Assembly: GCA_964016885.1 (NCBI GenBank)
Contig: OZ024747.1
Span: forward strand, 29,140,001 to 29,204,000
Length of the DNA: 64,000 nucleotides
Origin: Eledone cirrhosa
Taxonomy: Eukaryota
Reading direction: 5' to 3'
A program made the translations under genes and the position numbers. The notes beneath the pieces are model-generated. The model searched no databases. It was not told where the DNA came from and saw nothing but the letters and a program-made list of their open reading frames with translations. Below, piece by piece: positions 27,947 through 64,000 of this stretch (position 1 is its first letter; every line of letters begins with the position of its first letter).

Positions 27947-28002
27947 TTTTATTATATATATTTCAAGGGTACCAAATTTTGGTACGCTCTCATCAGATAA
28001 AA
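27947..28002 (-). ncRNA. Minimal type I hammerhead ribozyme
   Basis: TTTTAT-CTGATGA-GAGCGTACCAAAATTTGGTACCCTT-GAAA-T-ATAT-A-TA-ATAAAA. Confidence 0.75.
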
Positions 28003-28127
28003 TACAAAAGTTGGTTTACAGATAGTGACATATTCAGACAAGAACTTAATGTTGTGAGTTCTATTTGAATACTCACATCATTAAGTTCTTGTCTGAATAT
28101 GTCACTATCTGTAAACCAACTTTTATA

Positions 28128-28184
28128 TTTTATCTGATGAGTGCGTACCAAAATGTTGGTACCCTTGAAATATATATAATAAAA
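28128..28184 (+). ncRNA. Minimal type I hammerhead ribozyme
   Basis: TTTTAT-CTGATGA-GTGCGTACCAAAATGTTGGTACCCTT-GAAA-T-ATAT-A-TA-ATAAAA. Confidence 0.72.
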
Positions 28185-28227
28185 TAAATATGGTTTTATA
28201 AAGATAGCTTCCATATATTAATATTAT

Positions 28228-28307
<80 letters not shown>

Positions 28308-34106: not shown

Positions 34107-34345
34107 ATTATTATTATTATTATTATTATTGAATGCCATGGTTGACGGAGGCTCGGCTCTGTAAGGTATAGTAATTTTTAACCGTTAAAACAATTGTAAA
34201 TTGTTTAAAACTTGAACCAAATTGTTGATAAAGACACCCTCCTCCTCGTGAGAGGGGTCTTTCTGTCCGTTATTTGGCCCTTCGGGGTTAAATAACCAGT
34301 TATTGGGGTTTTGTACCCAAAATTTCATTTTAAACAAAAAACAAC

Positions 34346-36442
34346 ATGGCTACGAAAAAAAAATTTCATACGTCACTCCCACTCATTCCGTCTTCTTCTT
34401 CCTCAATCATCACTACAGCAGAGAGAAGATTGTCTCTCTCCCTCCCTTCTTTAAATGTGTCTCTCTCCCTCCCTTCTCTTTCGCAAGTGACGAAAGAAAA
34501 GAAAAGTCTCGTGCAAAGCGTGCAAGGTTTCTCCACGACGACGACGACAGCGACGAAACAGGTGTGCGGGAAATACGAAAACCCAGTTCATTCGTCTGAC
34601 GTCAGGAATAATAGCAGTAGCAGCCGTAATAACAACAGCAACAGTGACAATGAAAACAACAGTAGCAGCCGCAACAGCATCACCAGCAGCATAAACAACA
34701 ACAGCATTAGCAGCAGCAACACCAACAACAACCACAGCAACAGCGGCGGAGGCAGTAGTCGTAGTACCTGCAGCAACAACAAAAGTACCAGCAGCTCTGA
34801 CGACAACAACAACAGCAGAGAAAAACCAATCTCATTTGCAGGTATTGCGAAAAACTTGGAAACAATCCTCATAACAAATGAGGAATTAGAGGAAGCGAAG
34901 AAGATGGTGACAAAGAACGGACACCGAGCAATCTGCAAGGCAGCGGAAAAATTTTTCAAAACCCAAGAGCACTGTACGGTCACGTACCGTACAGTAAGTA
35001 CAAAATCCCGTAGGGTGGAAAGAGCCACAGAGGCCCAAATACAAAAAGCCTTGGGGTCTGTGTGGCAGAGGAAAACGCACATCACCCGAGGCAAAAAAAT
35101 ACGCCACCGTAGACGTACTTTTTGCCACACCCCAGGAGGCAAAGGCCCAATCAGTAGTGACCCTAAGGAGCGAGGAAATGGTGTTGGTGCCCTCCTACTG
35201 CGGGCAAAAAATTGTGAGGGTCAAACTGACCCACGTCCCCCCCGGAATGACCCCTTCTTGGCTGGCCGCGTCTGTCCTCGTCGGAATCGAGGACAAAACA
35301 ACTGTACTGCAAGTACAGAAAAATGTAAGAGAAGATTGGGTCGGCTCCTCCATTGAGATGCTAATCCAAACCAACCAGGAGTGCATCGAAGCTATCCCGG
35401 ATGTGATAGACTTCGATAACGGCACTCAACTGCCCATAAGTGTTGAGGGCAAACGCCCGAAATGCTTTCGCTGTGGATCGAAGACTCACCTCAGGGCCTT
35501 CTGCAACGAGAAGACCCTGAGAAAGGAGAAAACCCCCCTCCTTCCGAATCCGGCTCCACGGCTACCAGCAACAGGACAAGCGGCAACCAGGAACGATAGG
35601 TCCGTGGCACCCATACCCACTCCACGGAAATCAAAGACAGCAGCAGCAGTGGAAATATTAACAACAACAACAGCAATACCAAATGCAGCTGCAACAGAGA
35701 CTCCAGTGCAAACATCACCAACAACAACAAGTGAAAGAGTGGAGCTGGTACCCCTCCCCGACCTTACAGAATCAGACATGGAGTGTGAGGTGGGAGAGGG
35801 ATGGCAAAAGGTCGCAAGAAGGCACAAACGCAGAAGCAGCGCATCGTCGCCTTTGAAAAGGGAGGAAAGAAATGAGAAAAGGGTAAAGTCTACTGCAAAG
35901 AGACCCACAGCAGCAACACCACCAACACCATCACCACCCACACCAGCACCACCATCACCACCGGCGACAACCCCACCGCCAACAACACCTTCAACACCAC
36001 CACCACAAGCACCAACATCGCAAACACAACAACAAAACACACACACCCAGCAACAACGACAAGAAAATAGCAGAACCCCACCCCACCCCAGAAAAACAAA
36101 TGCACGGCAATAAACACACACAACAAGAAACTAATGACTTACATAATTGAACACACAGACATTTCACAACAGGACTACATAATACCAGCACCAATCAAAA
36201 CGCCAACTAACATAAGACTGCTAAAAATAGCACAGAAACAATACACAAACATTAAAACGAAATTCCCCAACGCAGTTGGTGATTTCAGGGACCTAGGAGG
36301 AACCATTAATCGAAGAGTATATTCAGACATTCTCTTAGAAGAGCCGACGACCAGCCGAAGGGACGATTCAACGGTCCCTTCACCAGACGATCAAGTGAAA
36401 AGGGATGTAAAAACCATCCCTCCTCTACCAAAAGTACGGTAA
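34346..36442 (+). pseudogene. LINE ORF1 copy 1, two homopolymer frameshifts
   Basis: Extra A at ~35093-35099 and a missing C at ~36086-36089 relative to the other copies; could be sequencing error. Confidence 0.8.
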
Positions 36443-36477
36443 GTGGTCTTTCCCATCTTTTCCACTCTATTTTAAAC

Positions 36478-39400
36478 ATGACCTCACTCAGAATAGGCAG
36501 CATAAATGCGCGTGGCTTGGGGTCGTCATGGAAGCAGGGTCACCTGCTCAACGACCTCAGGTCACTAAACATAGATGTAGTGGCCATCAGCGAGACCAGA
36601 ATCTCCGAAGCACGGGCCTTCGCACCGATCTTCGGCGGCTACGATGTGTACGCATCTCCCAGCCGTCCTGGATCGGGTGGAGGAGTTGCTGTGCTTTTTC
36701 GGAGAGGTTTGGATCTCGCCATACGGGCCATCTTCCTGGACCCAGAGGGTAAGCTGGTGGTGGTGGACGTGACCAGCGGAGACGGGCAAGCTTTCAGGCT
36801 AGTGGCCGTCTATGCCCCGACAGGAGCAGGGCGGCCTGATTTCTTCCGGCGTCTGGAGACCTTTCTTGGAACGTCGCGCTCTTTAGTGTTAGTGGGCGAC
36901 TGGAACGGGATCTTAGATGCACGCTGGGACTGTGTGGGATTAGCGGATAGGGGTGGAGGGTGCAAGAGCCTCACCAACCTGCTCAGGCGTTTTGAACTGT
37001 CTGACAGGTACCGATTGGATTTCCCGAATGTGCCAATGTGGACTTGGACAAACCGCGTAGGGTCATCCAGATCATATCTAGATAGAGTATTTTGTAGGGA
37101 AATAGATAGGTCTAGCATAGGCTGTCCACAATTCAAGATAGTCAGCTACACGGACCACAAATTCGTGACCTGTCTGCTTGACTTAGATAGGCTTCATAGA
37201 CGAGGACCCGGCTACTGGAAGCTAAACGCGTCCTTACCAGCGCGCAAGGCCTACAGAGACCGGATTAGCGAACTAGTTAAGCGGGCGTTGACGGGGGCCA
37301 TCGTCAACAACAAGTGGTGGTTTGCTCTGAAAAGAGCGATTAGAATAGAATCGATTAGGTTTAGTAAGGCTTTAGCAATAGAGAAAAATAGAGCAGAGGG
37401 AGAACTAGTTAGAAAATTAGACGAGGCGCTTAGCAAAGGCATTGCGACCGACGTGCTTGCGGCGAAATTGGCCCTTGACCAATTCTTCAATGCAAAGCAC
37501 GAAGGCTGCGTTGTCAGAGCTAGGGTGCGTGCTCTCAGACACGAGGGGACGAAAGCCGTTCAATGGGCCCGAGTGGCGGAGGCGCGTCGTGGCAACAAAG
37601 CCACGATCCGGTCTTTGGTGGACCCCGACGGGCGCATGCTACTCGATCCCGGGCAAATGTGTGAAGCTTTTCAGCGACACTTCGCTCAGCTGTTCGGGGG
37701 CAGCGGGGGGCCGGGTAGAGGGATGGACTTTAGTGTCTACCTCGACGGACTGCCGCGGCTCTCGGCCACTGAGGCGAAGTGTTGCGAAAAGCCGATAACA
37801 GCCGCTGAAGTAAGGGAGGCAATGACTGGCTGCACAAGGGGTAAATCGCCTGGTTTGGATGGTCTGCCCTATGAACTTTACGTACAGATGCCAGACTTGT
37901 TCGGAGGCCTCTTGGCGGACGTCTACTGCAACTGGCAACAGAACGGGAGAATTCCCAGTTCTGTGAGCCGAGGAGCGGTGGCACTGCTGAGAAAGGATCC
38001 GAACAAGGGGGATAACATAGAAAATTTCCGGCCCATAACTCTGCTAAACACAGAGTTTAAGATTTTGGCCAAGGTGCTAGCAAAGAGGTTGGCGCTTGTC
38101 GTTGGTGGTCTGGTGGGAGAGGCGCAGACATGCGCCATTCCCGACAGATCCATCCACGACAACCTCCACCTCATGCGATACATCGTAGAGAGGGTAGCTA
38201 GGGAACCTGGCACGGGTGGGTCCTTGATCAATTTAGATCAGTCGAAAGCTTTCGATAGGGTCGACCATCGTTACCTAGCGGCAGTCCTGAGGGCGGCTGG
38301 CTTTGGGCCCGTCTTCAGAGGCTGGATCGCTGCCATGCACAGCGACATCTGCTCTGTGGTGAGAGTGAACGGTCACCTGTCGGAACCGTTCAACATCATG
38401 CGCTCGGTCCGCCAAGGATGTCCCCTCTCGTCCCTCTTGTACGTATTGACTCTCGAGCCATTACTGCACAAACTGGAGACGTTGAGGGGGGTCCCGCGCG
38501 AACTAGGATGCGGAAGATCCGTATCAGCATATGCGGACGATGTCACCGTAGTGGTGTCGAACGCCAAACACATCGAGGCGATCGGCACTACACTAAGAGA
38601 ATACGAAGCGGTGACAGGAGCAATGATCAACCAGGAAAAGTCAGTGGGCCTGCAGCTCGGCACCTGGAGAGGCAGGTCCATGCCGTCCAACAGCGTCGTC
38701 GGACGCTGGACGGACGGACCAGTTAAATTGCTAGGGGTCTGGTTCGGTCCGGACCTCCAGACGGACAAAAACTGGGACGAGGTGACGAGCAGGGTGGCTT
38801 CTCTCACCCAGAAATGGGCCGAGAGGAAGCTATCCCTGAAAGGTCGAGCGGAGGTGGCTAACGCGTACATCGCGTCCGTCATCTGCTACCGCCTGACCGT
38901 CGTACCTTGTCCTAAGCCTCGCCTGACTGTGCTGGAGCGTTTGCTCTTTCGCTTTTTGTGGAAGGGACGCGCTCCGATGGTCAGGCGGTCCATCTGTTGT
39001 CAACACCCGCTACGTGGAGGGCTGGGCATGCCGTGGCTGATGATGCGCAGGCACGCGCTCAGGCTACGACATCTCCACCTCTTCCTCGACGGTGATCAGG
39101 TGTGGTCGCCGTTTGCTAGACGCGTTTTTCCCCAGCTCGTTTCCTTGACGGAGCTGCAGTCCTGGGTCAAGCGAAGACCGAGAGGGAGCGCCTGGAGACT
39201 GGAATGTCTTCAGGCGCTCACAGCCCTCGACCAATCGGGCAATGTGATCGGTGGAAACTCCACCTCGGCGTACTATAGAGGATTAGTGGAGGGGAAGAGC
39301 GACGACGTACTTGGGGAAACTCTAGGCGTCGACGAAAATCAACTAGCCAATCTCTTCGGAAGAACTTTCGGGCCGGGGCCTATGGACAACTTCCAGAAAT

Positions 39401-39897
39401 CTCTGGCCTGGCAGTGCTACCGAGGAGCCTTGCCAGTTCGGGATAAACTCTACAGGCATGGAGGTGCCGTCAGCCGGGCATGTCCGAGATGCGCGCAGGG
39501 CGACGAAACCGTCCTGCACGCACTCGTCCAGTGTCCGAAAATTGCTGACTTGTGGGTTTATGTCGAACACCTGCTGTCGCGTTTAGGACGGATCCAGCTA
39601 TCATCTGAGTCTATCGTGAGGATTGCCCCGCCCTCCTCCTTTAGCCGGGAAGGGCAGGCAGTTTTTATCTGTCTGGTGGCCATGGCGAAAGAGATAGTAT
39701 GGTGGACACGTTTGAAAGGGCTGAAGACGAGCACTTACCTCTTCGGTGATGCTCTGATTGACTTTTTCAAATTTCATTTGAAAAGGAAAATCAGAGTAGA
39801 GAAGGAAGTGCTCTCTTCCCAGCATTTTGTTGAAAGATGGGTGAGAGAAGCAAGAATGGCCCGAGTGAATGGGCCGACTCTGAGTATATATCTGTAA
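36478..39897 (+). CDS. LINE ORF2 copy 1: APE endonuclease, RT, C-terminal CCHC
   Basis: SINARG, SET, GDWN, YLDR, TDH, GYWKLN, KSPGLDG, FRPITLLN, DQSKAFDRV, QGCPLS, AYADD, CPRC..ETVLHALVQC; 1139 aa. Confidence 0.95.
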   Translation: MTSLRIGSINARGLGSSWKQGHLLNDLRSLNIDVVAISETRISEARAFAPIFGGYDVYASPSRPGSGGGVAVLFRRGLDLAIRAIFLDPEGKLVVVDVTSGDGQAFRLVAVYAPTGAGRPDFFRRLETFLGTSRSLVLVGDWNGILDARWDCVGLADRGGGCKSLTNLLRRFELSDRYRLDFPNVPMWTWTNRVGSSRSYLDRVFCREIDRSSIGCPQFKIVSYTDHKFVTCLLDLDRLHRRGPGYWKLNASLPARKAYRDRISELVKRALTGAIVNNKWWFALKRAIRIESIRFSKALAIEKNRAEGELVRKLDEALSKGIATDVLAAKLALDQFFNAKHEGCVVRARVRALRHEGTKAVQWARVAEARRGNKATIRSLVDPDGRMLLDPGQMCEAFQRHFAQLFGGSGGPGRGMDFSVYLDGLPRLSATEAKCCEKPITAAEVREAMTGCTRGKSPGLDGLPYELYVQMPDLFGGLLADVYCNWQQNGRIPSSVSRGAVALLRKDPNKGDNIENFRPITLLNTEFKILAKVLAKRLALVVGGLVGEAQTCAIPDRSIHDNLHLMRYIVERVAREPGTGGSLINLDQSKAFDRVDHRYLAAVLRAAGFGPVFRGWIAAMHSDICSVVRVNGHLSEPFNIMRSVRQGCPLSSLLYVLTLEPLLHKLETLRGVPRELGCGRSVSAYADDVTVVVSNAKHIEAIGTTLREYEAVTGAMINQEKSVGLQLGTWRGRSMPSNSVVGRWTDGPVKLLGVWFGPDLQTDKNWDEVTSRVASLTQKWAERKLSLKGRAEVANAYIASVICYRLTVVPCPKPRLTVLERLLFRFLWKGRAPMVRRSICCQHPLRGGLGMPWLMMRRHALRLRHLHLFLDGDQVWSPFARRVFPQLVSLTELQSWVKRRPRGSAWRLECLQALTALDQSGNVIGGNSTSAYYRGLVEGKSDDVLGETLGVDENQLANLFGRTFGPGPMDNFQKSLAWQCYRGALPVRDKLYRHGGAVSRACPRCAQGDETVLHALVQCPKIADLWVYVEHLLSRLGRIQLSSESIVRIAPPSSFSREGQAVFICLVAMAKEIVWWTRLKGLKTSTYLFGDALIDFFKFHLKRKIRVEKEVLSSQHFVERWVREARMARVNGPTLSIYL

Positions 39898-40158
39898 ACT
39901 AAAGGTGGAAAACTGGGAGAGGGCACTTGCCTTGGTGGTCAGGGTCATTGTGGCTTTTTACTGGGCTTTCTCCACAAATGTCCCTCCGAAGTCTCCCCCC
40001 TATTGGGGAATTTTTCATTGTTATTTTCATTGTTATTTTTGTTACATCCTCTGTTTTTGTTTTTTTTACACGCAGAAATGCCCATTTGTACCGTCCTGCA
40101 TTGTCCTGCACTGTCCTTAATGTCTACTTTATGTAAACCCTTGTGGTTAATAAAGAAA

Positions 40159-40190
<32 letters not shown>

Positions 40191-40405
40191 GAATGCCATG
40201 GTTGACGGAGGCTCGGCTCTGTAAGGTATAGTAATTTTTAACCGTTAAAACAATTGTAAATTGTTTAAAACTTGAACCAAATTGTTGATAAAGACACCCT
40301 CCTCCTCGTGAGAGGGGTCTTTCTGTCCGTTATTTGGCCCTTCGGGGTTAAATAACCAGTTATTGGGGTTTTGTACCCAAAATTTCATTTTAAACAAAAA
40401 ACAAC

Positions 40406-42502
40406 ATGGCTACGAAAAAGAAATTTCATACGTCACTCCCACTCATTCCGTCTTCTTCTTCCTCAATCATCACTACAGCAGAGAGAAGATTGTCTCTCTC
40501 CCTCCCTTCTTTAAATGTGTCTCTCTCCCTCCCTTCTCTTTCGCAAGTGACGAAAGAAAAGAAAAGTCTCGTGCAAAGCGTGCAAGGTTTCTCCACGACG
40601 ACGACGACAGCGACGAAACAGGTGTGCGGGAAATACGAAAACCCAGTTCATTCGTCTGACGTCAGGAATAATAGCAGTAGCAGCCGTAATAACAACAGCA
40701 ACAGTGACAATGAAAACAACAGTAGGAGCCGCAACAGCATCACCAGCAGCATAAACAACAACAGCATTAGCAGCAGCAACACCAACAACAACCACAGCAA
40801 CAGCGGCGGAGGCAGTAGTCGTAGTACCTGCAGCAACAACAAAAGTACCAGCAGCTCTGACGACAACAACAACAGCAGAGAAAAACCAATCTCATTTGCA
40901 GGTATTGCGAAAAACTTGGAAACAATCCTCATAACAAATGAGGAATTAGAGGAAGCGAAGAAGATGGTGACAAAGAACGGACACCGAGCAATCTGCAAGG
41001 CAGCGAAAAATTTTTTCGAAACCCAAGAGCACTGTACGGTCACGTACCGTACAGTAAGTACAAAATCCCGTAGGGTGGAAAGAGCCACAGAGGCCCAAAT
41101 ACAAAAAGCCTTGGGGTCTGTGTGGCAGCGGAAAACGCACATCACCCGAGGCAAAAAATATGCCACCGTAGACGTACTTTTTGCCACACCCCAGGAGGCA
41201 AAGGCCCAATCAGTAGTGACCCTAAGGAGCGAGGAAATGGTGTTGGTGCCCTCCTACTGTGGGCAAAAAATTGTGAGGGTCAAACTGACCCACGTCCCCC
41301 CCGGAATGACCCCTTCTTGGCTGGCCGCGTCTGTCCTCGTCGGAATCGAGGACAAAACAACTGTACTGCAAGTACAGAAAAAAGTAAGAGAAGATTGGGT
41401 CGGCTCCTCCATTGAGATGCTAATCCAAACCAACCAGGAGTGCATCGAAGCTATCCCGGATGTGATAGACTTCGATAACGGCACTCAACTGCCCATAAGT
41501 GTTGAGGGCAAACGCCCGAAATGCTTTCGCTGTGGATCGAAGACCCACCTCAGGGCCTTCTGCAACGAGAAGACCCTGAGAAAGGAGAAAACCCACCTCC
41601 TTCCGAATCCGGCTCCACGGCTACCAGCAACAGGACAAGCGGCAACCAGGAACGATAGGCCCGTGGCACCCATACCCACTCCACGGAAATCAAAAACAGC
41701 AGCAGCAGTGGAAATACTAACAACAACAACAGCAATACCAAATGCAGCTGCAACAGAGACTCCAGTGCAAACATCACCAACAACAACAAGTGAAAGAGTG
41801 GAGTTGGTACCCCTCCCCGACCTCACAGAATCAGACATGGATTGTGAGGTGGGAGAGAGATGGCAAAAGGTCGTAAGAAGACACAAACGCAGAAGCAGCG
41901 CATCGTCGCCTTTGAAAAGGGAGGAAAGAAATGAGAAAAGGGTAAAGTCTACTGCAAAGAGACCCACAGCAGCAACAACACCAACACCATCACCACCCAC
42001 ACTAGCGCCACCATCACCACCGGCGACAACGCCACCGCCAACAACACCTTCAACACCACCACCACAAGCACCAACATCGCAAACACAACAACAAAACACA
42101 CACACCCAGCAACAACGACAAGAAAATAGCAGAACCACACCCCACCCCCAGAAAAACAAATGCACGGCAATAAACACACACAACAAGAAACTAATGACTT
42201 ACATAATTGAACACACAGACATTTCACAACAGGACTACATAATACCAGCACCAATCAAAACGCCAACTAACATAAGACTGCTAAAAATAGCACAGAAACA
42301 ATACACAAACATTAAAACGAAATTCCCCAACGCAGTTGGTGATTTCAGGGACCTAGGAGGAACCATCAATCGAAGAGTATATTCAGACATTCTCTTAGAA
42401 GAGCCGACGACCAGCCGAAGGGACGATTCAACGGTCCCTTCACCAGACGATCAAGTGAAAAGGGATGTAAAAACCATCCCTCCTCTACCAAAAGTACGGT
42501 AA
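40406..42502 (+). CDS. LINE ORF1 copy 2: gag-like nucleic-acid-binding protein
   Basis: 698 aa; single CCHC knuckle CFRCGSKTHLRAFC; Ser/Asn-rich N-terminal and Pro/Thr-rich C-terminal tracts. Confidence 0.9.
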   Translation: MATKKKFHTSLPLIPSSSSSIITTAERRLSLSLPSLNVSLSLPSLSQVTKEKKSLVQSVQGFSTTTTTATKQVCGKYENPVHSSDVRNNSSSSRNNNSNSDNENNSRSRNSITSSINNNSISSSNTNNNHSNSGGGSSRSTCSNNKSTSSSDDNNNSREKPISFAGIAKNLETILITNEELEEAKKMVTKNGHRAICKAAKNFFETQEHCTVTYRTVSTKSRRVERATEAQIQKALGSVWQRKTHITRGKKYATVDVLFATPQEAKAQSVVTLRSEEMVLVPSYCGQKIVRVKLTHVPPGMTPSWLAASVLVGIEDKTTVLQVQKKVREDWVGSSIEMLIQTNQECIEAIPDVIDFDNGTQLPISVEGKRPKCFRCGSKTHLRAFCNEKTLRKEKTHLLPNPAPRLPATGQAATRNDRPVAPIPTPRKSKTAAAVEILTTTTAIPNAAATETPVQTSPTTTSERVELVPLPDLTESDMDCEVGERWQKVVRRHKRRSSASSPLKREERNEKRVKSTAKRPTAATTPTPSPPTLAPPSPPATTPPPTTPSTPPPQAPTSQTQQQNTHTQQQRQENSRTTPHPQKNKCTAINTHNKKLMTYIIEHTDISQQDYIIPAPIKTPTNIRLLKIAQKQYTNIKTKFPNAVGDFRDLGGTINRRVYSDILLEEPTTSRRDDSTVPSPDDQVKRDVKTIPPLPKVR

Positions 42503-42537
42503 GTGGTCTTTCCCATCTTTTCCACTCTATTTTAAAC

Positions 42538-45500: not shown

Positions 45501-45957
45501 GGATAAACTCTACAGGCATGGAGGTGCCGTCAGCCGGGCATGTCCGAGATGCGCGCAGGGCGACGAAACCGTCCTGCACGTACTCGTCCAGTGTCCGAAA
45601 ATTGCTGACTTGTGGGTTTATGTCGAACACCTGCTGTCGCGTTTAGGACGGATCCAGCTATAATCTGAGTCCATCGTGAGGATTGCCCCGCCCTCCTCCT
45701 TTAGCCGGGAAGGGCAGGCAGTTTTTATCTGTCTGGTGGCCATGGCGAAAGAGATAGTATGGTGGACACGTTTGAAAGGGCTGAAGACGAGCACTTACCT
45801 CTTCGGTGATGCTCTGATTGACTTTTTCAAATTTCATTTGAAAAGGAAAATCAGAGTAGAGAGGGAAGTGCTCTCTTCCCAGCATTTTGTTGAAAGATGG
45901 GTGAGAGAAGCAAGAATGGCCCGAGTGAATGGGCCTACTCTGAGCATATATCTGTAA
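42538..45957 (+). pseudogene. LINE ORF2 copy 2 with premature stop
   Basis: TCA>TAA at 45661-45663 removes the last 98 aa. Confidence 0.88.
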
Positions 45958-46217
45958 ATTAAAGGTGGAAAACTGGGAGAGGGCACTTGCCTTGGTGGTC
46001 AGGGTCATTGTGGCTTTTAACTGGGCTTTCTCCACAAATGTCCCTCCAAAGTCTCCCCCCCTATTGGGGAATTTTTCATTGTTATTTTCATTGTTATTTT
46101 TGTTACATCCTCTGTTTTTGTTTTTTACACGCAGAAATGCCCATTTGTACCGTCCTGCATTGTCCAGCACTGTCCTTAATGTCTACTTTATGTAAACCCT
46201 TGTGGTTAATAAAGAAA

Positions 46218-46252
<35 letters not shown>

Positions 46253-46465
46253 GAATGCCATGGTTGACGGAGGCTCGGCTCTGTAAGGTATAGTAATTTT
46301 TAACCGTTAAAACAATTGTAAATTGTTTAAAACTTGAACCAAATTGTTGATAAAGACACCCTCCTCCTCGTGAGAGGGGTCTTTCTGTCCGTTATTTGGC
46401 CCTACGGGGTTAAATAACCAGTTATTGGGGTTTTGTACCCAAAATTTCATTTTAAACAAAAAAAC

Positions 46466-48568: not shown

Positions 48569-48603
48569 GTGGTCTTTCCCATCTTTTCCACTCTATTTTA
48601 AAC

Positions 48604-52023: not shown

Positions 52024-52522
52024 ACTAAAGGTGGAAAACTGGGAGAGGGCACTTGCCTTGGTGGTCAGGGTCATTGTGGCTTTTTACTGGGCTTTCTCCA
52101 CAAATGTCCCTCCGAAGTCTCCCCCCTATTGGGGAATTTTTCATTGTTATTTTCATTGTTATTTTTGTTACATCCTCTGTTTTTGTTTTTTTACACGCAG
52201 AAATGCCCATTTGTACCGTCCTGCATTGTCCTGCACTGTCCTTAATGTCTACTTTATGTAAACCCTTGTGGTTAATAAAGAAATCATTATTATTATTATT
52301 ATTATTATTGAATGCCATGGTTGACGGAGGCTCGGCTCTGTAAGGTATAGTAATTTTTAACCGTTAAAACAATTGTAAATTGTTTAAAACTTGAACCAAA
52401 TTGTTGATAAAGACACCCTCCTCCTCGTGAGAGGGGTCTTTCTGTCCGTTATTTGGCCCTTCGGGGTTAAATAGCCAGTTATTGGGGTTTTGTACCCAAA
52501 ATTTCATTTTAAACAAAAAAAC

Positions 52523-54619: not shown

Positions 54620-54654
54620 GTGGTCTTTCCCATCTTTTCCACTCTATTTTAAAC

Positions 54655-57600
54655 ATGACCTCACTCAGAATAGGCAGCATAAATGCGCGTGGCTTGGGGT
54701 CGTCATGGAAGCAGGGTCACCTGCTCAACGACCTCAGGTCACTAAACATAGATGTAGTGGCCATCAGCGAGACCAGAATCTCCGAAGCACGGGCCTTCGC
54801 ACCGATCTTCGGCGGCTACGATGTGTACGCATCTCCCAGCCGTCCTGGATCGGGTGGAGGAGTTGCTGTGCTTTTTCGGAGAGGTTTGGATCTCGCCATA
54901 CGGGCCATCTTCCTGGACCCAGAGGGTAAGCTGGTGGTGCTGGACGTGACCAGCGGAGACGGGCAAGCTTTCAGGCTAGTGGCCGTCTATGCCCCGACAG
55001 GAGCAGGGCGGCCTGATTTCTTCCGGCGTCTGGAGACCTTTCTTGGAACGTCCCGCTCTTTAGTGTTAGTGGGCGACTGGAACGGGATCTTAGATGCACG
55101 CTGGGACTGTGTGGGATTAGCGGATAGGGGTGGAGGGTGCAAGAGCCTCACCAACCTGCTCAGGCGTTTTGAAATGTCTGACAGGTACCGATTGGATTTC
55201 CCGAATGTGCCAATGTGGACTTGGACAAACCGCATAGGGTCATCCAGATCATATCTAGATAGAGTATTTTGTAGGGAAATAGATAGGTCTAGCATAGGCT
55301 GTCCACAATTCAAGATAGTCAGCTACACGGACCACAAATTCGTGACCTGTGTGCTTGACTTAGATAGGCTTCATAGACGAGGACCCGGCTACTGGAAGCT
55401 AAACGCGTCCTTACCAGCGCGCAAGGCCTACAGAGACCGGATTAGCGAACTAGTTAAGCGGGCGTTGACGGGGGCCATCGTCAACAACAAGTGGTGGTTT
55501 GCTCTGAAAAGAGCGATTAGAATAGAATCGATTAGATTTAGTAAGGCTTTAGCAATAGAGAAAAATAGAGCAGAGGGAGAACTAGTTAGAAAATTAGACG
55601 AGGCGCTTAGCAAAGGCATTGCGACCGACGTGCTTGCGGCGAAATTGGCCCTTGACCAATTCTTCAATGCAAAGCACGAAGGCTGCGTTGTCAGAGCAAG
55701 GGTGCGTGCTCTCAGACACGAGGGGACGAAAGCCGTTCAATGGGCCCGAGTGGCGGAGGCGCGTCGTGGCAACAAAGCCACGATCCGGTCTTTGGTGGAC
55801 CACGACGGGCGCATGCTACTCGATCCCGGGCAAATGTGTGAAGCTTTTCAGCGACACTTCGCTCAGCTGTTCGGGGGCAGCGGGGGGCCGGGTAGAGGGA
55901 TGGACTTTAGTGTCTACCTCGACGGACTGCCGCGGCTCTCGGCCACTGAGGCGAAGTGTTGCGAAAAGCCGATAACAGCCGCTGAAGTAAGGGAGGCAAT
56001 GACTGGCTGCACAAGGGGTAAATCGCCTGGTTTGGATGGTCTGCCCTATGAACTTTACGTACAGATGCCAGACTTGTTCGGAGGCCTCTTGGCGGACGTC
56101 TACTGCAACTGGCAACAGAACGGGAGAATTCCCAGTTCTGTGAGCCGAGGAGCGGTGGCACTGCTGAGAAAGGATCCGAACAAGGGGGATAACATAGACA
56201 ATTTCCGGCCCATAACTCTGCTAAACACAGAGTTTAAGATTTTGGCCAAGGTGCTAGCAAAGAGGTTGGCGCTTGTCGTTGGTGGTCTGGTGGGAGAGGC
56301 GCAGACATGCGCCATTCCCGACAGATCCATCCACGACAACCTCCACCTCATGCGATACATCGTAGAGAGGGTAGCTAGGGAACCTGGCACGGGTGGGTCC
56401 TTGATCAATTTAGATCAGTCGAAAGCTTTCGATAGGGTCGACCATCGTTACCTAGCGGCAGTCCTGAGGGCGGCTGGCTTTGGGCCCGTCTTCAGAGGCT
56501 GGATCGCTGCCATGCACAGCGACATCTGCTCTGTGGTGAGAGTGAACGGTCACCTGTCGGAACCGTTCAACATCATGCGCTCGGTCCGCCAAGGATGTCC
56601 CCTCTCGTCCCTCTTGTACGTATTGACTCTCGAGCCATTACTGCACAAACTGGAGACGTTGAGGGGAATCCCGCGCGAACTAGGATGCGGAAGATCCGTG
56701 TCAGCATATGCGGACGATGTCACCGTAGTGGTGTCGAACGCCAAACACATCGAGGCGATCGGCACTACACTAAGAGAATACGAAGCGGTGACAGGAGCAA
56801 TGATCAACCAGGAAAAGTCAGTGGGCCTGCAGCTCGGCACCTGGAGAGGCAGGTCCATGCCGTCCAACAGCGTCGTCGGGCGCTGGACGGACGGACCGGT
56901 TAAATTGCTAGGGGTCTGGTTCGGTCCGGACCTCCAGACGGACAAAAACTGGGACGAGGTGACGAGCAGGGTGGCTTCTCTCACCCAGAAATGGGCGGAG
57001 AGGAAGCTATCCCTGAAAGGTCGAGCGGAGGTGGCTAACGCGTACATCGCGTCTGTCATCTGCTACCGCCTAACCGTCGTACCTTGTCCTAAGCCTCGCC
57101 TGACTGCGCTGGAGCGTTTGCTCTTTCGCTTTTTGTGGAAGGGACGTGCTCCGATGGTCAGGCGGTCCATCTGTTGTCAACACCCGCTACGTGGAGGGCT
57201 GGGCATGCCGTGGCTGATGATGCGCAGGCACGCGCTCAGGCTACGAGATCTCCACCTCTTCCTCGACGGTGATCAGGTGTGGTCGCCGTTTGCTAGACGC
57301 GTTTTTCCCCAGCTCGTTTCCTTGACGGAGCTGCAGTCCTGGGTCAAGCGAAGACCGAGAGGGAGCGCCTGGAGACTGGAATGTCTTCAGGCGCTCACAG
57401 CCCTCGACCAATCGGGCAATGTGATCGGTGGAAACTCCACCTCGGCGTTCTATAGAGGATTAGTGGAGGGGAAGAGCGACGACGTACTTGGGGAAACTCT
57501 AGGCGTCGACGAAAATCAACTAGCCAATCTCTTCGGAAGAACTTTCGGGCCAGGGCCTATGGACAACTTCCAGAAATCTCTGGCCTGGCAGTGCTACCGA

Positions 57601-58074
57601 GGAGCCTTGCCAGTTCGGGATAAACTCTACAGGCATGGAGGTGCCGTCAGCCGGGCATGTCCGAGATGCGCGCAGGGCGACGAAACCGTCCTGCACGCAC
57701 TCGTCCAGTGTCCGAAAATTGCTGACTTGTGGGTTTATGTCGAACACCTGCTGTCGCGTTTGGGACGGATCCAGCTATCATCTGAGTCTATCGTGAGGAT
57801 TGCCCCGCCCTCCTCCTTTAGCCGGGAAGGGCAGGCAGTTTTTATCTGTCTGGTGGCCATGGCGAAAGAGATAGTATGGTGGACACGTTTGAAAGGGCTG
57901 AAGACGAGCACTTACCTCTTCGGTGATGCTCTGATTGACTTTTTCAAATTTCATTTGAAAAGGAAAATCAGAGTAGAGAAGGAAGTGCTCTCTTCCCAGC
58001 ATTTTGTTGAAAGATGGGTGAGAGAAGCAAGAATGGCCCGAGTGAATGGGCCGACTCTGAGTATATATCTGTAA
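54655..58074 (+). CDS. LINE ORF2 copy 4 (APE-RT)
   Basis: Intact 1139 aa. Confidence 0.95.
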   Translation: MTSLRIGSINARGLGSSWKQGHLLNDLRSLNIDVVAISETRISEARAFAPIFGGYDVYASPSRPGSGGGVAVLFRRGLDLAIRAIFLDPEGKLVVLDVTSGDGQAFRLVAVYAPTGAGRPDFFRRLETFLGTSRSLVLVGDWNGILDARWDCVGLADRGGGCKSLTNLLRRFEMSDRYRLDFPNVPMWTWTNRIGSSRSYLDRVFCREIDRSSIGCPQFKIVSYTDHKFVTCVLDLDRLHRRGPGYWKLNASLPARKAYRDRISELVKRALTGAIVNNKWWFALKRAIRIESIRFSKALAIEKNRAEGELVRKLDEALSKGIATDVLAAKLALDQFFNAKHEGCVVRARVRALRHEGTKAVQWARVAEARRGNKATIRSLVDHDGRMLLDPGQMCEAFQRHFAQLFGGSGGPGRGMDFSVYLDGLPRLSATEAKCCEKPITAAEVREAMTGCTRGKSPGLDGLPYELYVQMPDLFGGLLADVYCNWQQNGRIPSSVSRGAVALLRKDPNKGDNIDNFRPITLLNTEFKILAKVLAKRLALVVGGLVGEAQTCAIPDRSIHDNLHLMRYIVERVAREPGTGGSLINLDQSKAFDRVDHRYLAAVLRAAGFGPVFRGWIAAMHSDICSVVRVNGHLSEPFNIMRSVRQGCPLSSLLYVLTLEPLLHKLETLRGIPRELGCGRSVSAYADDVTVVVSNAKHIEAIGTTLREYEAVTGAMINQEKSVGLQLGTWRGRSMPSNSVVGRWTDGPVKLLGVWFGPDLQTDKNWDEVTSRVASLTQKWAERKLSLKGRAEVANAYIASVICYRLTVVPCPKPRLTALERLLFRFLWKGRAPMVRRSICCQHPLRGGLGMPWLMMRRHALRLRDLHLFLDGDQVWSPFARRVFPQLVSLTELQSWVKRRPRGSAWRLECLQALTALDQSGNVIGGNSTSAFYRGLVEGKSDDVLGETLGVDENQLANLFGRTFGPGPMDNFQKSLAWQCYRGALPVRDKLYRHGGAVSRACPRCAQGDETVLHALVQCPKIADLWVYVEHLLSRLGRIQLSSESIVRIAPPSSFSREGQAVFICLVAMAKEIVWWTRLKGLKTSTYLFGDALIDFFKFHLKRKIRVEKEVLSSQHFVERWVREARMARVNGPTLSIYL

Positions 58075-58575
58075 ACTAAAGGTGGAAAACTGGGAGAGGG
58101 CACTTGCCTTGGTGGTCAGGGTCATTGTGGCTTTTTACTGGGCTTTCTCCACAAATGTCCCTCCGAAGTCTCCCCCTATTGGGGAATTTTTCATTGTTAT
58201 TTTCATTGTTATTTTTGTTACATCCTCTGTTTTTGTTTTTTTACACGCAGAAATGCCCATTTGTACCGTCCTGCATTGTCCTGCACTGTCCTTAATGTCT
58301 ACTTTATGTAAACCCTTGTGGTTAATAAAGAAATCATTATTATTATTATTATTATTATTATTGAATGCCATGGTTGACGGAGGCTCGGCTCTGTAAGGTA
58401 TAGTAATTTTTAACCGTTAAAACAATTGTAAATTGTTTAAAACTTGAACCAAATTGTTGATAAAGACACCCTCCTCCTCGTGAGAGGGGTCTTTCTGTCC
58501 GTTATTTGGCCCTTCGGGGTTAAATAACCAGTTATTGGGGTTTTGTACCCAAAATTTCATTTTAAACAAAAAAAC

Positions 58576-60672
58576 ATGGCTACGAAAAAGAAATTTCATA
58601 CGTCACTCCCACTCATTCCGTCTTCTTCTTCCTCAATCATCACTACAGGAGAGAGAAGATTGTCTCTCTCCCTCCCTTCTTTAAATGTGTCTCTCTCCCT
58701 CCCTTCTCTTTCGCAAGCGACGAAAGAAAAGAAAAGTCTCGTGCAAAGCGTGCAAGGTTTCTCCACGACGACGACGACAGCGACGAAACAGGTGTGCGGG
58801 AAATACGAAAACCCAGTTCATTCGTCTGACGTCAGGAATAATAGCAGTAGCAGCCGTAATAACAACAGCAACAGTGACAATGAAAACAACAGTAGCAGCC
58901 GCAACAGCATCACCAGCAGCATAAACAACAACAGCATTAGCAGCAGCAACACCAACAACAACCACAGCAACAGCGGCGGAGGCAGTAGTCGTAGTACCTG
59001 CAGCAACAACAAAAGTACCAGCAGCTCTGACGACAACAACAACAGCAGAGAAAAACCAATCTCATTTGCAGGTATTGCGAAAAACCTGGAAACAATCCTC
59101 ATAACAAATGAGGAATTAGAGGAAGCGAAGAAGATGGTGACAAAGAACGGACACCGAGCAATCTGCAAGGCAGCGAAAAATTTTTTCGAAACCCAAGAGC
59201 ACTGTACGGTCACGTACCGTACAGTAAGTACAAAATCCCGTAGGGTGGAAAGAGCCACAGAGGCCCAAATACAAAAAGCCTTGGGGTCTGTGTGGCAGAG
59301 GAAAACGCACATCACCCGAGGCAAAAAATACGCCACCGTAGACGTACTTTTTGCCACACCCCAGGAGGCAAAGGCCCAATCAGTAGTGACCCTAAGGAGC
59401 GAGGAAATGGTGTTGGTGCCCTCCTACTGCGGGCAAAAAATTGTGAGGGTCAAACTGACCCACGTCCCCCCCGGAATGACCCCTTCTTGGCTGGCCGCGT
59501 CTGTCCTCGTCGGAATCGAGGACAAAACAACTGTACTGCAAGTACAGAAAAAAGTAAGAGAAGATTGGGTCGGCTCCTCCATTGAGATGCTAATCCAAAC
59601 CAACCAGGAGTGCATCGAAGCTATCCCGGATGTGATAGACTTCGATAACGGCACTCAACTGCCCATAAGTGTTGAGGGCAAACGCCCGAAATGCTTTCGC
59701 TGTGGATCGAAGACTCACCTCAGGGCCTTCTGCAACGAGAAGACCCTGAGAAAGGAGAAAACCCCCCTCCTCCCGAATCCGGTTCCACGGCTACCAGCAA
59801 CAGGACAAGCGGCAACCAGGAACGACAGGTCCGTGGCACCCATACCCACTCCACGGAAATCAAAGACAGCAGCAGCAGTGGAAATATTAACAACAACAAC
59901 AGCAATACCAAATGCAGCTGCAACAGAGACTCCAGTGCAAACATCACCAACAACAACAAGTGAAAGAGTGGAGCTGGTACCCCTCCCCGACCTTACAGAA
60001 TCAGACATGGAGTGTGAGGTGGGAGAGGGATGGCAAAAGGTCTCAAGAAGGCACAAACGCAGAAGCAGCGCATCGTCGCCTTTGAAAAGGGAGGAAAGAA
60101 ATGAGAAAAGGGTAAAGTCTACTGCAAAGAGACCCACAGCAGCAACACCACCAACACCATCACCACCCACACCAGCACCACCATCACCACCGGCGACAAC
60201 CCCACCGCCAACAACACCTTCAACACCACCACCACAAGCACCAACATCGCAAACACAACAACAAAACACACACACCCAGCAACAACGACAAGAAAATAGC
60301 AGAACCACACCCCACCCCCAGAAAAACAAATGCACGGCAATAAACACACACAACAAGAAACTAATGACTTACATAATTGAACACACAGACATTTCACAAC
60401 AGGACTACATAATACCAGCACCAATCAAAACGCCAACTAACATAAGACTGCTAAAAATAGCACAGAAACAATACACAAACATTAAAACGAAATTCCCCAA
60501 CGCAGTTGGTGATTTCAGGGACCTAGGAGGAACCATTAATCGAAGAGTATATTCAGACATTCTCTTAGAAGAGCCGACGACCAGCCGAAGGGACGATTCA
60601 ACGGTCCCTTCACCAGACGATCAAGTGAAAAGGGATGTAAAAACCATCCCTCCTCTACCAAAAATACGGTAA
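58576..60672 (+). CDS. LINE ORF1 copy 5
   Basis: Intact, CCHC knuckle present. Confidence 0.9.
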   Translation: MATKKKFHTSLPLIPSSSSSIITTGERRLSLSLPSLNVSLSLPSLSQATKEKKSLVQSVQGFSTTTTTATKQVCGKYENPVHSSDVRNNSSSSRNNNSNSDNENNSSSRNSITSSINNNSISSSNTNNNHSNSGGGSSRSTCSNNKSTSSSDDNNNSREKPISFAGIAKNLETILITNEELEEAKKMVTKNGHRAICKAAKNFFETQEHCTVTYRTVSTKSRRVERATEAQIQKALGSVWQRKTHITRGKKYATVDVLFATPQEAKAQSVVTLRSEEMVLVPSYCGQKIVRVKLTHVPPGMTPSWLAASVLVGIEDKTTVLQVQKKVREDWVGSSIEMLIQTNQECIEAIPDVIDFDNGTQLPISVEGKRPKCFRCGSKTHLRAFCNEKTLRKEKTPLLPNPVPRLPATGQAATRNDRSVAPIPTPRKSKTAAAVEILTTTTAIPNAAATETPVQTSPTTTSERVELVPLPDLTESDMECEVGEGWQKVSRRHKRRSSASSPLKREERNEKRVKSTAKRPTAATPPTPSPPTPAPPSPPATTPPPTTPSTPPPQAPTSQTQQQNTHTQQQRQENSRTTPHPQKNKCTAINTHNKKLMTYIIEHTDISQQDYIIPAPIKTPTNIRLLKIAQKQYTNIKTKFPNAVGDFRDLGGTINRRVYSDILLEEPTTSRRDDSTVPSPDDQVKRDVKTIPPLPKIR

Positions 60673-60707
60673 GTGGTCTTTCCCATCTTTTCCACTCTAT
60701 TTTAAAC

Positions 60708-63700
60708 ATGACCTCACTCAGAATAGGCAGCATAAATGCGCGTGGCTTGGGGTCGTCATGGAAGCAGGGTCACCTGCTCAACGACCTCAGGTCACTAAAC
60801 ATAGATGTAGTGGCCATCAGCGAGACCAGAATCTCCGAAGCACGGGCCTTCGCACCGATCTTCGGCGGCTACGATGTGTACGCATCTCCCAGCCGTCCTG
60901 GATCGGGTGGAGGAGTTGCTGTGCTTTTTCGGAGAGGTTTGGATCTCGCCATACGGGCCATCTTCCTGGACCCAGAGGGTAAGCTGGTGGTGCTGGACGT
61001 GACCAGCGGAGACGGGCAAGCTTTCAGGCTAGTGGCCGTCTATGCCCCGACAGGAGCAGGGCGGCCTGATTTCTTCCGGCGTCTGGAGACCTTTCTTGGA
61101 ACGTCGCGCTCTTTAGTGTTAGTGGGCGACTGGAACGGGATCTTAGATGCACGCTGGGACTGTGTGGGATTAGCGGATAGGGGTGGAGGGTGCAAGAGCC
61201 TCACCAACCTGCTCAGGCGTTTTGAACTGTCTGACAGGTACCGATTGGATTTCCCGAATGTGCCAATGTGGACTTGGACAAACCGCATAGGGTCATCCAG
61301 ATCATATCTAGATAGAGTATTTTGTAGGGAAATAGATAGGTCTAGCATAGGCTGTCCACAATTCAAGATAGTCAGCTACACGGACCACAAATTCGTGATC
61401 TGTGTGCTTGACTTAGATAGGCTTCATAGACGAGGACCCGGCTACTGGAAGCTAAACGCGTCCTTACCAGCGCGCAAGGCCTACAGAGACCGGATTAGCG
61501 AACTAGTTAAGCGGGCGTTGACGGGGGCCATCGTCAACAACAAGTGGTGGTTTGCTCTGAAAAGAGCGATTAGAATAGAATCGATTAGGTTTAGTAAGGC
61601 TTTAGCAATAGAGAAAAATAGAGCAGAGGGAGAACTAGTTAGAAAATTAGACGAGGCGCTTAGCAAAGGCATTGCGACCGACGTGCTTGCGGCGAAATTG
61701 GCCCTTGACCAATTCTTCAATGCAAAGCACGAAGGCTGCGTTGTCAGAGCTAGGGTGCGTGCTCTCAGACACGAGGGGACGAAAGCCGTTCAATGGGCCC
61801 GAGTGGCGGAGGCGCGTCGTGGCAACAAAGCCACGATCCGGTCTTTGGTGGACCACGACGGGCGCATGCTACTCGATCCCGGGCAAATGTGTGAAGCTTT
61901 TCAGCGACACTTCGCTCAGCTGTTCGGGGGCAGCGGGGGGCCGGGTAGAGGGATGGACTTTAGTGTCTACCTCGACGGGCTGCCGCGGCTCTCGGCCACT
62001 GAGGCGAGGTGTTGCGAAAAGCCGATAACAGCCGCTGAAGTACGGGAGGCAATGACTGGCTGCACAAGGGGTAAATCGCCTGGTTTGGATGGTCTGCCCT
62101 ATGAACTTTACGTACAGATGCCAGACTTGTTCGGAGGCCTCTTGGCGGACGTCTACTGCAACTGGCAACAGAACGGGAGAATTCCCAGTTCTGTGAGCCG
62201 AGGAGCGGTGGCACTGCTGAGAAAGGATCCGAACAAGGGGGATAACATAGACAATTTCCGGCCCATAACTCTGCTAAACACAGAGTTTAAGATTTTGGCC
62301 AAGGTGCTAGCAAAGAGGTTGGCGCTTGTCGTTGGTGGTCTGGTGGGAGAGGCGCAGACATGCGCCATTCCCGACAGATCCATCCACGACAACCTCCACC
62401 TCATGCGATACATCGTAGAGAGGGTAGCTAGGGAACCTGGCACGGGTGGGTCCTTGATCAATTTAGATCAGTCGAAAGCTTTCGATAGGGTCGACCATCG
62501 TTACCTAGCGGCAGTCCTGAGGGCGGCTGGCTTTGGGCCCGTCTTCAGAGGCTGGATCGCTGCCATGCACAGCGACATCTGCTCTGTGGTGAGAGTGAAC
62601 GGTCACCTGTCGGAACCGTTCAACATCATGCGCTCGGTCCGCCAAGGATGTCCCCTCTCGTCCCTCTTGTACGTATTGACTCTCGAGCCATTACTGCACA
62701 AACTGGAGACGTTGAGGGGAGTCCCGCGCGAACTAGGATGCGGAAGATCCGTGTCAGCATATGCGGACGATGTCACCGTAGTGGTGTCGAACGCCAAACA
62801 CATCGAGGCGATCGGCACTACACTAAGAGAATACGAAGCGGTGACAGGAGCAATGATCAACCAGGAAAAGTCAGTGGGCCTGCAGCTCGGCACCTGGAGA
62901 GGCAGGTCCATGCCGTCCAACAGCGTCGTCGGGCGCTGGACGGACGGACCGGTTAAATTGCTAGGGGTCTGGTTCGGTCCGGACCTCCAGACGGACAAAA
63001 ACTGGGACGAGGTGACGAGCAGGGTGGCTTCTCTCACCCAGAAATGGGCGGAGAGGAAGCTATCCCTGAAAGGTCGAGCGGAGGTGGCTAACGCGTACAT
63101 CGCGTCTGTCATCTGCTACCGCCTAACCGTCGTACCTTGTCCTAAGCCTCGCCTGACTGCGCTGGAGCGTTTGCTCTTTCGCTTTTTGTGGAAGGGACGT
63201 GCTCCGATGGTCAGGCGGTCCATCTGTTGTCAACACCCGCTACGTGGAGGGCTGGGCATGCCGTGGCTGATGATGCGCAGGCACGCGCTCAGGCTACGAC
63301 ATCTCCACCTCTTCCTCGACGGTGATCAGGTGTGGTCGCCGTTTGCTAGACGCGTTTTTCCCCAGCTCGTTTCCTTGACGGAGCTGCAGTCCTGGGTCAA
63401 GCGAAGACCGAGAGGGAGCGCCTGGAGACTGGAATGTCTTCAGGCGCTCACAGCCCTCGACCAATCGGGCAATGTGATCGGTGGAAACTCCACCTCGGCG
63501 TTCTATAGAGGATTAGTGGAGGGGAAGAGCGACGACGTACTTGGGGAAACTCTAGGCGTCGACGAAAATCAACTAGCCAATCTCTTCGGAAGAACTTTCG
63601 GGCCGGGGCCTATGGACAACTTCCAGAAATCTCTGGCCTGGCAGTGCTACCGAGGAGCCTTGCCAGTTCGGGATAAACTCTACAGGCATGGAGGTGCCGT

Positions 63701-64000
63701 CAGCCGGGCATGTCCGAGATGCGCGCAGGGCGACGAAACCGTCCTGCACGCACTCGTCCAGTGTCCGAAAATTGCTGACTTGTGGGTTTATGTCGAACAC
63801 CTGCTGTCGCGTTTAGGACGGATCCGGCTATCATCTGAGTCCATCGTGAGGATTGCCCCGCCCTCCTCCTTTAGCCGGGAAGGGCAGGCAGTTTTTATCT
63901 GCCTGGTGGCCATGGCGAAAGAGATAGTATGGTGGACACGTTTGAAAGGGCTGAAGACGAGCACTTACCTCTTCGGTGATGCTCTGATTGACTTTTTCAA
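60708..64000 (+). CDS. LINE ORF2 copy 5 (APE-RT), cut by window end
   Basis: ATG at 60708, colinear with the other copies; absent from the track because no stop falls inside the window. Confidence 0.9.
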   Translation, partial: MTSLRIGSINARGLGSSWKQGHLLNDLRSLNIDVVAISETRISEARAFAPIFGGYDVYASPSRPGSGGGVAVLFRRGLDLAIRAIFLDPEGKLVVLDVTSGDGQAFRLVAVYAPTGAGRPDFFRRLETFLGTSRSLVLVGDWNGILDARWDCVGLADRGGGCKSLTNLLRRFELSDRYRLDFPNVPMWTWTNRIGSSRSYLDRVFCREIDRSSIGCPQFKIVSYTDHKFVICVLDLDRLHRRGPGYWKLNASLPARKAYRDRISELVKRALTGAIVNNKWWFALKRAIRIESIRFSKALAIEKNRAEGELVRKLDEALSKGIATDVLAAKLALDQFFNAKHEGCVVRARVRALRHEGTKAVQWARVAEARRGNKATIRSLVDHDGRMLLDPGQMCEAFQRHFAQLFGGSGGPGRGMDFSVYLDGLPRLSATEARCCEKPITAAEVREAMTGCTRGKSPGLDGLPYELYVQMPDLFGGLLADVYCNWQQNGRIPSSVSRGAVALLRKDPNKGDNIDNFRPITLLNTEFKILAKVLAKRLALVVGGLVGEAQTCAIPDRSIHDNLHLMRYIVERVAREPGTGGSLINLDQSKAFDRVDHRYLAAVLRAAGFGPVFRGWIAAMHSDICSVVRVNGHLSEPFNIMRSVRQGCPLSSLLYVLTLEPLLHKLETLRGVPRELGCGRSVSAYADDVTVVVSNAKHIEAIGTTLREYEAVTGAMINQEKSVGLQLGTWRGRSMPSNSVVGRWTDGPVKLLGVWFGPDLQTDKNWDEVTSRVASLTQKWAERKLSLKGRAEVANAYIASVICYRLTVVPCPKPRLTALERLLFRFLWKGRAPMVRRSICCQHPLRGGLGMPWLMMRRHALRLRHLHLFLDGDQVWSPFARRVFPQLVSLTELQSWVKRRPRGSAWRLECLQALTALDQSGNVIGGNSTSAFYRGLVEGKSDDVLGETLGVDENQLANLFGRTFGPGPMDNFQKSLAWQCYRGALPVRDKLYRHGGAVSRACPRCAQGDETVLHALVQCPKIADLWVYVEHLLSRLGRIRLSSESIVRIAPPSSFSREGQAVFICLVAMAKEIVWWTRLKGLKTSTYLFGDALIDFF

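Follow-up and report, generated by a model that had tools for sequence, protein, structure and literature searches.

Insertion of long interspersed elements (LINEs) into simple repeats, and the growth of such insertions into arrays, have both been described. In the portions of the literature consulted here, the Tx1 families Kibi and Koshi and those of crocodilians are microsatellite-specific, with (TC)n, (TTC)n and (TTCC)n/(TTTC)n as targets (PMC4494074, PMC3812793), and Dong is a TAA-targeting element of Bombyx, Anopheles and Biomphalaria (PMC3812793). Convergence on a single target is documented for Keno and Utopia, both of which use U2 (PMC4640811). The R1 array of Drosophila consists of site-specific copies separated by a target duplication and expanded by unequal exchange, and double insertion followed by unequal exchange has been described as one way in which arrays of transposable elements (TEs) form (PMC5932611), while Tx1-driven tandem insertions sandwiching a target-site duplication are described for SINEU-3/Tx1-Mar (PMC4494074). 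Herein, we analyzed a 64,000-nt stretch of the Eledone cirrhosa genome (C7:29,140,001-29,204,000; hereafter, the window) carrying a tandem array of a LINE with two open reading frames (ORFs), which we designate family A, together with genome-wide counts taken in the 3.0-Gb genome; a sister Tx1 family is designated family B, and the contig labels C1, C4 and C7 and the locus labels beginning with L refer to the same assembly as the window. The results were best accommodated by a joint reading that we hold to be very probable, namely that family A is a young, likely Tx1-type LINE that inserts in (ATT)n, nicks near the 5' edge of the tract and leaves targets through a 15-18-bp duplication, with later copies landing alongside.

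A first-pass annotation of the window had proposed at least five units of ~6.06 kb, each starting with GAATGCC after (ATT)8-11 and ending in AATAAAGAAATC(ATT)n. As summarized in Table 1, exactly five head-to-tail family A units were found, all of full length (6,026-6,033 bp) and differing pairwise by 0.30-0.96%, and the four unit 3' ends lying in the window all read AATAAAGAAATC(ATT)n; reversed control patterns gave 0 matches, which excluded chance. Copy 5 terminates 388 bp beyond the window; (ATT)3AGT(ATT)10 comes next and then another family, which limits the run to five. Copies 3 and 4 were intact in both ORFs as had been noted, and copy 5 proved intact too. The first tract adjoins a fragment of an unrelated element of the restriction-like endonuclease (RLE) type, with no family A copy before it, and the five copies sit within a longer ATT-linked train of an older Tx1-type copy, an RLE element, the A units, family B, further RLE elements and a repeat resembling a short interspersed element (SINE).

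To examine the flanks genome-wide, copies were located by exact sequence patterns for 5' heads and 3' ends. The proposed targeting of (ATT)n was upheld by this tabulation, in which 1,553 of the 1,604 exact family A heads directly followed TT(ATT)3 rather than random 5' flanks, and 65 of the first 66 position-ordered heads on C1 were preceded by (ATT)3. Family B gave 1,883 exact heads, and all of the 30 sampled followed ATT. At the opposite terminus, 6,639 3' ends of families A and B were found, with (ATT)3 next in 5,463. A listed head lay upstream of 44 of the first 100 (ATT)3-bearing 3' ends on C1, and 40 of the other 56 were inspected, which resolved into 19 with a variant head, 9 truncated and abutting (ATT)n, and 12 not abutting it. 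The 5' end was retained in ~70% of copies, and among 21 5'-incomplete copies 9 abutted (ATT)n and two more (TTC)n. Since 5'-truncated copies also abut the repeat, the tract represents the target and not a leader, and an origin of the 5' tract purely as an RNA leader was thereby ruled out as the whole story. The 5' tracts had medians of 6 triplets in truncated copies (a hand-counted set) and 8 in full-length ones (p=0.015), and a small leader contribution may exist, although a junction mode of six speaks against a large one. Family A is thus microsatellite-specific, its copies occurring almost only in (ATT)n. Available targets are few: counted in one phase, the pool comprised 13,743 in-phase tracts of at least 11 triplets preceded by a non-T base, and among the first 100 of these 30 were already tails of young A or B copies.

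The flanks of interrupted repeats revealed a target-site duplication of 15-18 bp with little or no added tail. At L258, L284 and L289, the 14-18 bp beginning at, or no more than one triplet away from, the 3' end contained the interruption and recurred on the 5' side, and a full-length copy at C1:278.83 Mb was found to have a 17-bp non-repeat stretch duplicated directly after its 3' end. L064 and L145 were mirrored as well, allowing up to ~3 added triplets, and the added tail accordingly amounts to 0 to about 3 triplets. In total, 39 ends carried an interruption at triplet 4, and the 37 inspected comprised 9 of an older family (unscored), 15 full-length and 10 incomplete copies that were unmirrored, and 3 truncated copies that were mirrored. 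The exact A-head junctions numbered 3, 43, 29, 33, 27, 19, 13, 24, 16 and 17 for 5 to 14 triplets, respectively, a census in which some upstream ends are of the older family (4 of the 27 at nine triplets), and its sharp floor at six triplets (43 against 3 with five) fits an 18-bp duplication. The first-pass annotation had the units joined by their own (ATT)n tails, each insertion thereby rebuilding its target; with mirrored flanks and a six-triplet floor, the tracts instead behave as target-site duplications, so that the rebuilding of the target stands but its attribution to an element-made tail is not supported.

The lengths of the two flanking tracts further indicated that insertion is biased toward the 5' edge. 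Both tracts could be scored at 40 of 66 loci, and in 33 of these the 3' tract was the longer, with medians of 15 triplets on the 3' side and 8 on the 5' side (p=3e-6). Family B is older than family A by nearest-neighbour distance, and 12 of the 13 A copies lying directly before a B head had no more than 8 triplets on the 5' side, against an average of 13.5 in solo B tracts; a model with a uniform nick position gave P<=0.004 for these copies. Separately, older A and B copies (L209-L239) had 5' tracts longer and broader in distribution than those of young A copies, which may reflect growth after insertion or a shifted nick position.

In the mechanism that we propose, the family A endonuclease would nick (ATT)n close to the 5' edge, with its putative specificity-setting domain of the apurinic/apyrimidinic endonuclease (APE) type, and target-primed reverse transcription would follow. 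The 15-18-bp duplication made at each insertion would leave a fresh target on each side, into which later copies could insert beside earlier ones to produce an array. The window array would have been assembled mainly by separate insertions, and the longest arrays would have grown further in place, with unequal exchange as the most likely process, while retrotransposition into the array continues.

Arrays were then surveyed across the genome. The first-pass annotation had envisaged a growing coding satellite, for which an array of ~17 A units at C4:357,944,626-358,047,600 (L341-L345; ~100 kb) spoke in favor; as a general description it was overstated, since 75 of the first 100 A heads on C1 had no same-family neighbor within 6.3 kb (the longest run being 4) and the tracts are shared with family B and Dong-like elements. 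A TE-derived satellite is a locally homogenised long array, and the five units of the window were of mixed origin. Long arrays were nevertheless in excess: in the junction census, 13 arrays implied at least 5 units, with at least 3 junctions seen in 11, against a mean of 0.45 and a maximum of 3 in 200 simulations with one new target per insertion and a matched link rate. The census thereby ruled out the C1 sample's suggestion that arrays are a mere geometric tail of target saturation. In the C4 array, 15 heads were located on a 6.06-kb grid spanning 16 periods (two slots unseen); its units belong to one young subfamily, vary in junction length and are closer to each other than to the background. 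One of them (L342:1534-1745; C4:357,974,927) carries 11 private changes within the first 210 nt, in the 5' untranslated region (UTR), all 11 being A>G, a cluster unique genome-wide that likely marks an A-to-I (ADAR)-edited RNA freshly inserted within the array; a genome-wide A>G excess was not seen, this being one copy among 158 heads. At C1:45,777,202-45,778,022, three 3' ends spaced 395 bp apart form a short tandem repeat of a 3' fragment of the element.

Several observations weigh against the joint reading. No allele with an empty site was encountered, the repeat (ATT)3 was absent after 1,176 of the 6,639 3' ends, 12 of the 21 5'-incomplete copies had no adjoining (ATT)n, and not one of the 15 full-length copies with a triplet-4 interruption was mirrored on the 5' side, a number that by our estimate is about what later point mutation can produce, or else the 5' join could overwrite the duplicate. 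When a 6-triplet tail was assumed, moreover, the within-locus edge test became non-significant (p=0.09-0.25), although the mirrored flanks argue against such a tail. That the element carries its own (ATT)n tail and rebuilds the target with it would explain why 3' tracts exceed 5' tracts, why L064 has ~2-3 triplets preceding its duplicated T-run, and why interruptions are mildly enriched at triplets 2-6 (12/660 against 4/672, p=0.046). Against it, the duplicate in L258, L284, L289 and at C1:278.83 Mb begins no farther than one triplet from the 3' end; the 5' and 3' tracts of the A-before-B copies, furthermore, sum to 21.8 triplets, which after subtraction of a solo B tract leaves ~8 for a duplication of six plus any tail. 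The variants at triplet 4 were also mixed (AAT, AGT and ACT among the 39) rather than derived from a single donor lineage, and the same mixture ruled out the AGT in the 3' tract of copy 5 as a donor-inherited tail mark. We therefore consider an own tail improbable as the source of the tracts.

As for the five window copies, the tree of 66 copies, which excludes 17 older ones, requires 5 changes to place them, at least 4 of which are forced by starred branches, and this scatter over the branches of the family suggests that they are likely independent insertions. Descent from one or two insertions through unequal exchange or tandem duplication, followed by divergence, finds some encouragement in five other arrays, whose neighbors show 0-1 differences per 1.5 kb. 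Two points from the window itself lean the same way and tell against separate insertion, in that the AU test does not reject a single clade (p=0.177) and copies 3 and 5 share an identical run of 1,748 nt (99th percentile), making some conversion or exchange inside the window possible. Copies 1 and 2, however, rank each other only 58th-59th of 82, the nearest relatives of the window copies lie mostly on other contigs, the tracts at the four junctions range over 8-11 triplets and differ in length, and the B and RLE neighbors require separate insertions; the window copies were also no closer to each other than those of random young sets (mean distance 0.64% against 0.78%, P=0.12). The 66 A heads were preceded by a Tx1 end in 26 cases, an RLE end in 11, a SINE-like end in 5 and another kind of flank in 24, and unequal exchange cannot make such heterotypic joins (37 of 66 heads following a Tx1 or RLE end). 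Thus the window array likely arose mainly by separate insertions, and its derivation from one or two is very unlikely. Less probable still is an over-expanded repeat of the assembly: the arrays are read from the assembly, and some other arrays hold identical units, but the window units differ in many private substitutions, breaks and junction lengths, and 224 head-to-tail junctions of 5-14 triplets are spread across many contigs. For the long arrays, the identical neighbors suggest that unequal exchange acts subsequently, although they could instead be assembly duplications, which weakens the exchange step. That these arrays instead grow mainly by local retrotransposition, with array RNA or read-through multimers acting in cis, is less likely though a real possibility: the C4 units are non-identical (1-5 differences in each 1.5 kb of tail) with spacings from 6,046 to 6,077, the head of one unit has 11 of its 40 top matches in that array, and one unit bears the unique A>G cluster. 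The C4 subfamily is near-identical genome-wide, so that origin is unreadable from distance, and the alternation of short and long spacings fits dimer duplication just as the strictly identical neighbors elsewhere fit exchange.

The element itself has the layout of a Tx1-type LINE. Copy 3 comprises a structured 5' UTR of 213 nt, ORF1, a 35-nt spacer, ORF2 and a 262-nt 3' UTR, with poly(A) absent, and the family A 5' UTR folds well (z=-3.4). The only Pfam matches in ORF2 were Exo_endo_phos (the N-terminal APE), RVT_1 and a C-terminal zf-RVT, with no RNase H. ORF1 bears one CCHC knuckle (CX2CX4HX4C at residue 373) and its Atlas features gave 0.91-0.93 to CCHC/ZCCHC3-RBD clusters; no significant Pfam match was obtained for it, and cluster look-ups yielded no element names. 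An ORF1 with RNA-binding domains and a CCHC knuckle is common in Tx1. The traits of L1 proper were absent, there being no poly(A) tail, no loose TT/AAAA target and no predominance of truncated copies. In phmmer searches, ORF2 scored 319-346 bits to five of six TX1/YTX2-named proteins and 106 to the sixth, compared with 181 for human L1, its best PDB match, and the nearest named protein, from Argonauta hians, was 74% identical across the reverse transcriptase (RT) region, in keeping with an octopod host. Identity to TX1-named vertebrate proteins was only ~30% over ORF2, and in a tree of 51 RTs (4 rows excluded; neither vertebrate L1 nor curated Tx1 represented) families A and B formed their own starred clade with deep nodes unsupported. 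The earlier assignment to an L1/Tx1-type LINE is therefore retained: judged from sequence scores, the element is likely an L1-group LINE closest to Tx1, and that this best placement comes from scores while the deep nodes stay unsettled counts against the Tx1 part of the joint reading. Both ORFs were open in 42 of 83 full-length copies, a sample that favors young copies.

The tracts are shared with several other families. Family B at L031 (C7:29,204,431-29,210,322) has a different 5' UTR and ORF1 but is 96% identical from the ORF1-ORF2 spacer onward; A-head/B-tail chimeras occur at L043, L067, L069 and L145, and some copies (L151, L210) are followed by yet another head, which begins GGTCT. Two RLE families lie on the opposite strand within the same (ATT)n tracts, one at C7:29,210,347-29,220,533 (L031-L032) and the other at window positions 32928-34106, the latter showing 37-49% identity to the downstream RLE element (tblastn, E 8e-38). 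An ATT precedes 2,669 ends of one of these families and 63 of 68 sampled ends of the second, and truncated RLE copies likewise abut ATT. SINE-like repeats ending in GAAAC(A/C)(ATT)n (L046, L151, L159, L163, L176) provide many targets. We take the RLE families to be Dong/R4-like, and the latter repeats to be SINE-like, from RT, zinc-finger and RPD-type nuclease motifs rather than from a tree. Long pieces differing from the element by less than ~1% were found under other organism labels (sequence runs X4 and X6), and such near-identical sequence may be common to related species or have moved between them; run X22 yielded low-complexity matches only.

Table 1. Features of the ATT-linked train in and beyond the window (window positions).
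Feature	Position	Strand	Remarks
Older Tx1-type copy	28879..32900	+	~80% at the nucleotide level to array unit; 5' part absent, ORF2 broken, end AATAAAGAAATC
(ATT)7 ATG ATT tract	32901..32927	+	
Second-family RLE-type (presumably Dong/R4-like) element	32928..34106	-	5'-truncated, broken; remnants of RT end, zinc finger and nuclease
(ATT)8 left target tract	34107..34130	+	
Copy 1	34131..40160	+	Full length; ORF1 frameshifted; ORF2 36478-39897 open, 1,139 aa
(ATT)10 junction	40161..40190	+	
Copy 2	40191..46219	+	ORF1 40406-42502 open; ORF2 42538-45663 with premature stop, 1,041 aa
(ATT)11 junction	46220..46252	+	
Copy 3	46253..52285	+	Both ORFs open; ORF1 46466-48568 (700 aa), ORF2 48604-52023
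(ATT)8 junction	52286..52309	+	
Copy 4	52310..58335	+	Both ORFs open; 52523-54619, 54655-58074
(ATT)9 junction	58336..58362	+	
Copy 5	58363..64000	+	Both ORFs open; extends past the window
Beyond copy 5, in order			(ATT)3AGT(ATT)10, full-length 5.9-kb family B copy, (ATT)8, pair of RLE elements on the minus strand with (ATT)23 between them, (ATT)8, SINE-like repeat

Elsewhere in the window, two 2,979-bp copies with 99.8% identity lie inverted head-to-head at ~13,980-20,170, with ORFs at 15514-17139 (-) and 17340-18635 (+); the pair is likely Penelope-like, as suggested by a weak GIY-YIG match (E 0.89). A 390-bp palindromic element centered on an (AT)n run at ~27,870-28,260 is possibly a miniature inverted-repeat transposable element.

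Within one genome, one young family thus displays the stages from transposon to satellite as solo copies, dimers, 5-6-mers and a 17-mer, which makes the shares of re-insertion and unequal exchange measurable. A target common to APE-type and unrelated RLE elements likewise offers a direct test of convergence and niche competition. With 42 of 83 sampled copies intact and at least 1,600 heads, family A is likely among the main active LINEs of the genome. It is further of interest as a candidate enzyme for site-specific insertion, and it can introduce errors into ATT microsatellite markers and into repeat annotation.

Like Kibi, Koshi and the crocodilian Tx1 families, family A is an APE-RT LINE residing within a simple repeat, but Kibi and Koshi use (TC)n or (TTC)n whereas family A uses (ATT)n, with only 2 of 21 incomplete copies abutting (TTC)n. 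The edge bias and long arrays of family A go unmentioned for Kibi and Koshi in the relevant parts of PMC4494074 and PMC3812793. In the main text on O. vulgaris, 13 young L1-Tx1 families (421 insertions) and 1,129 Dong-R4 insertions are reported and the word "target" is absent (PMC13282606). A Tx1 family targeting ATT, AAT or TAA was not found in the literature searched, including the consulted parts of PMC12628747, PMC5753468 and PMC8967140, a search outside of which lay Repbase/Dfam, Kojima and Fujiwara 2004, and the further-target figure and supplements of PMC4494074. The use of (ATT)n by an APE-type nuclease is therefore likely new, an earlier description being possible.

Family A shares its microsatellite with Dong. 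Dong, of the R4 clade, has a restriction-like nuclease and one ORF; family A, in contrast, combines two ORFs with an APE domain and occupies the other strand of the tract, and from these differences in layout, nuclease and strand the target was likely reached independently, as with Keno and Utopia. Mammalian L1 has the same ORF2 layout, and its copies are mostly truncated; family A differs from it in the missing poly(A), the knuckle-bearing ORF1, the strict target and the ~70% of copies keeping their 5' end. The SINEU-3 tandems are SINE dimers in a Mariner target and not arrays of an autonomous 6-kb element. R1 occupies a single ribosomal DNA site in a 0.5-1.3-Mb array, whereas family A has thousands of dispersed microsatellite targets, which seed numerous arrays; these comprise 2-17 units, for the most part of full length and often intact, mixed with other families. 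More tentatively, and with less conviction than for the joint reading, one might picture an octopod Tx1 that independently evolved the target of Dong, reads its 5' edge, stays mostly full-length and prefers its own arrays, so that 100-kb protein-coding satellites grow by retrotransposition and record ADAR-edited transcripts. The mechanism as such is known elsewhere, from the R1 array, Kibi/Koshi and Dong, and family A behaves as the R1 array does, though with a dispersed target; what sets it apart is the target itself, the bias toward the tract edge, the proportion of copies that are intact and of full length, a niche also used by RLE elements, and an array of 100 kb.

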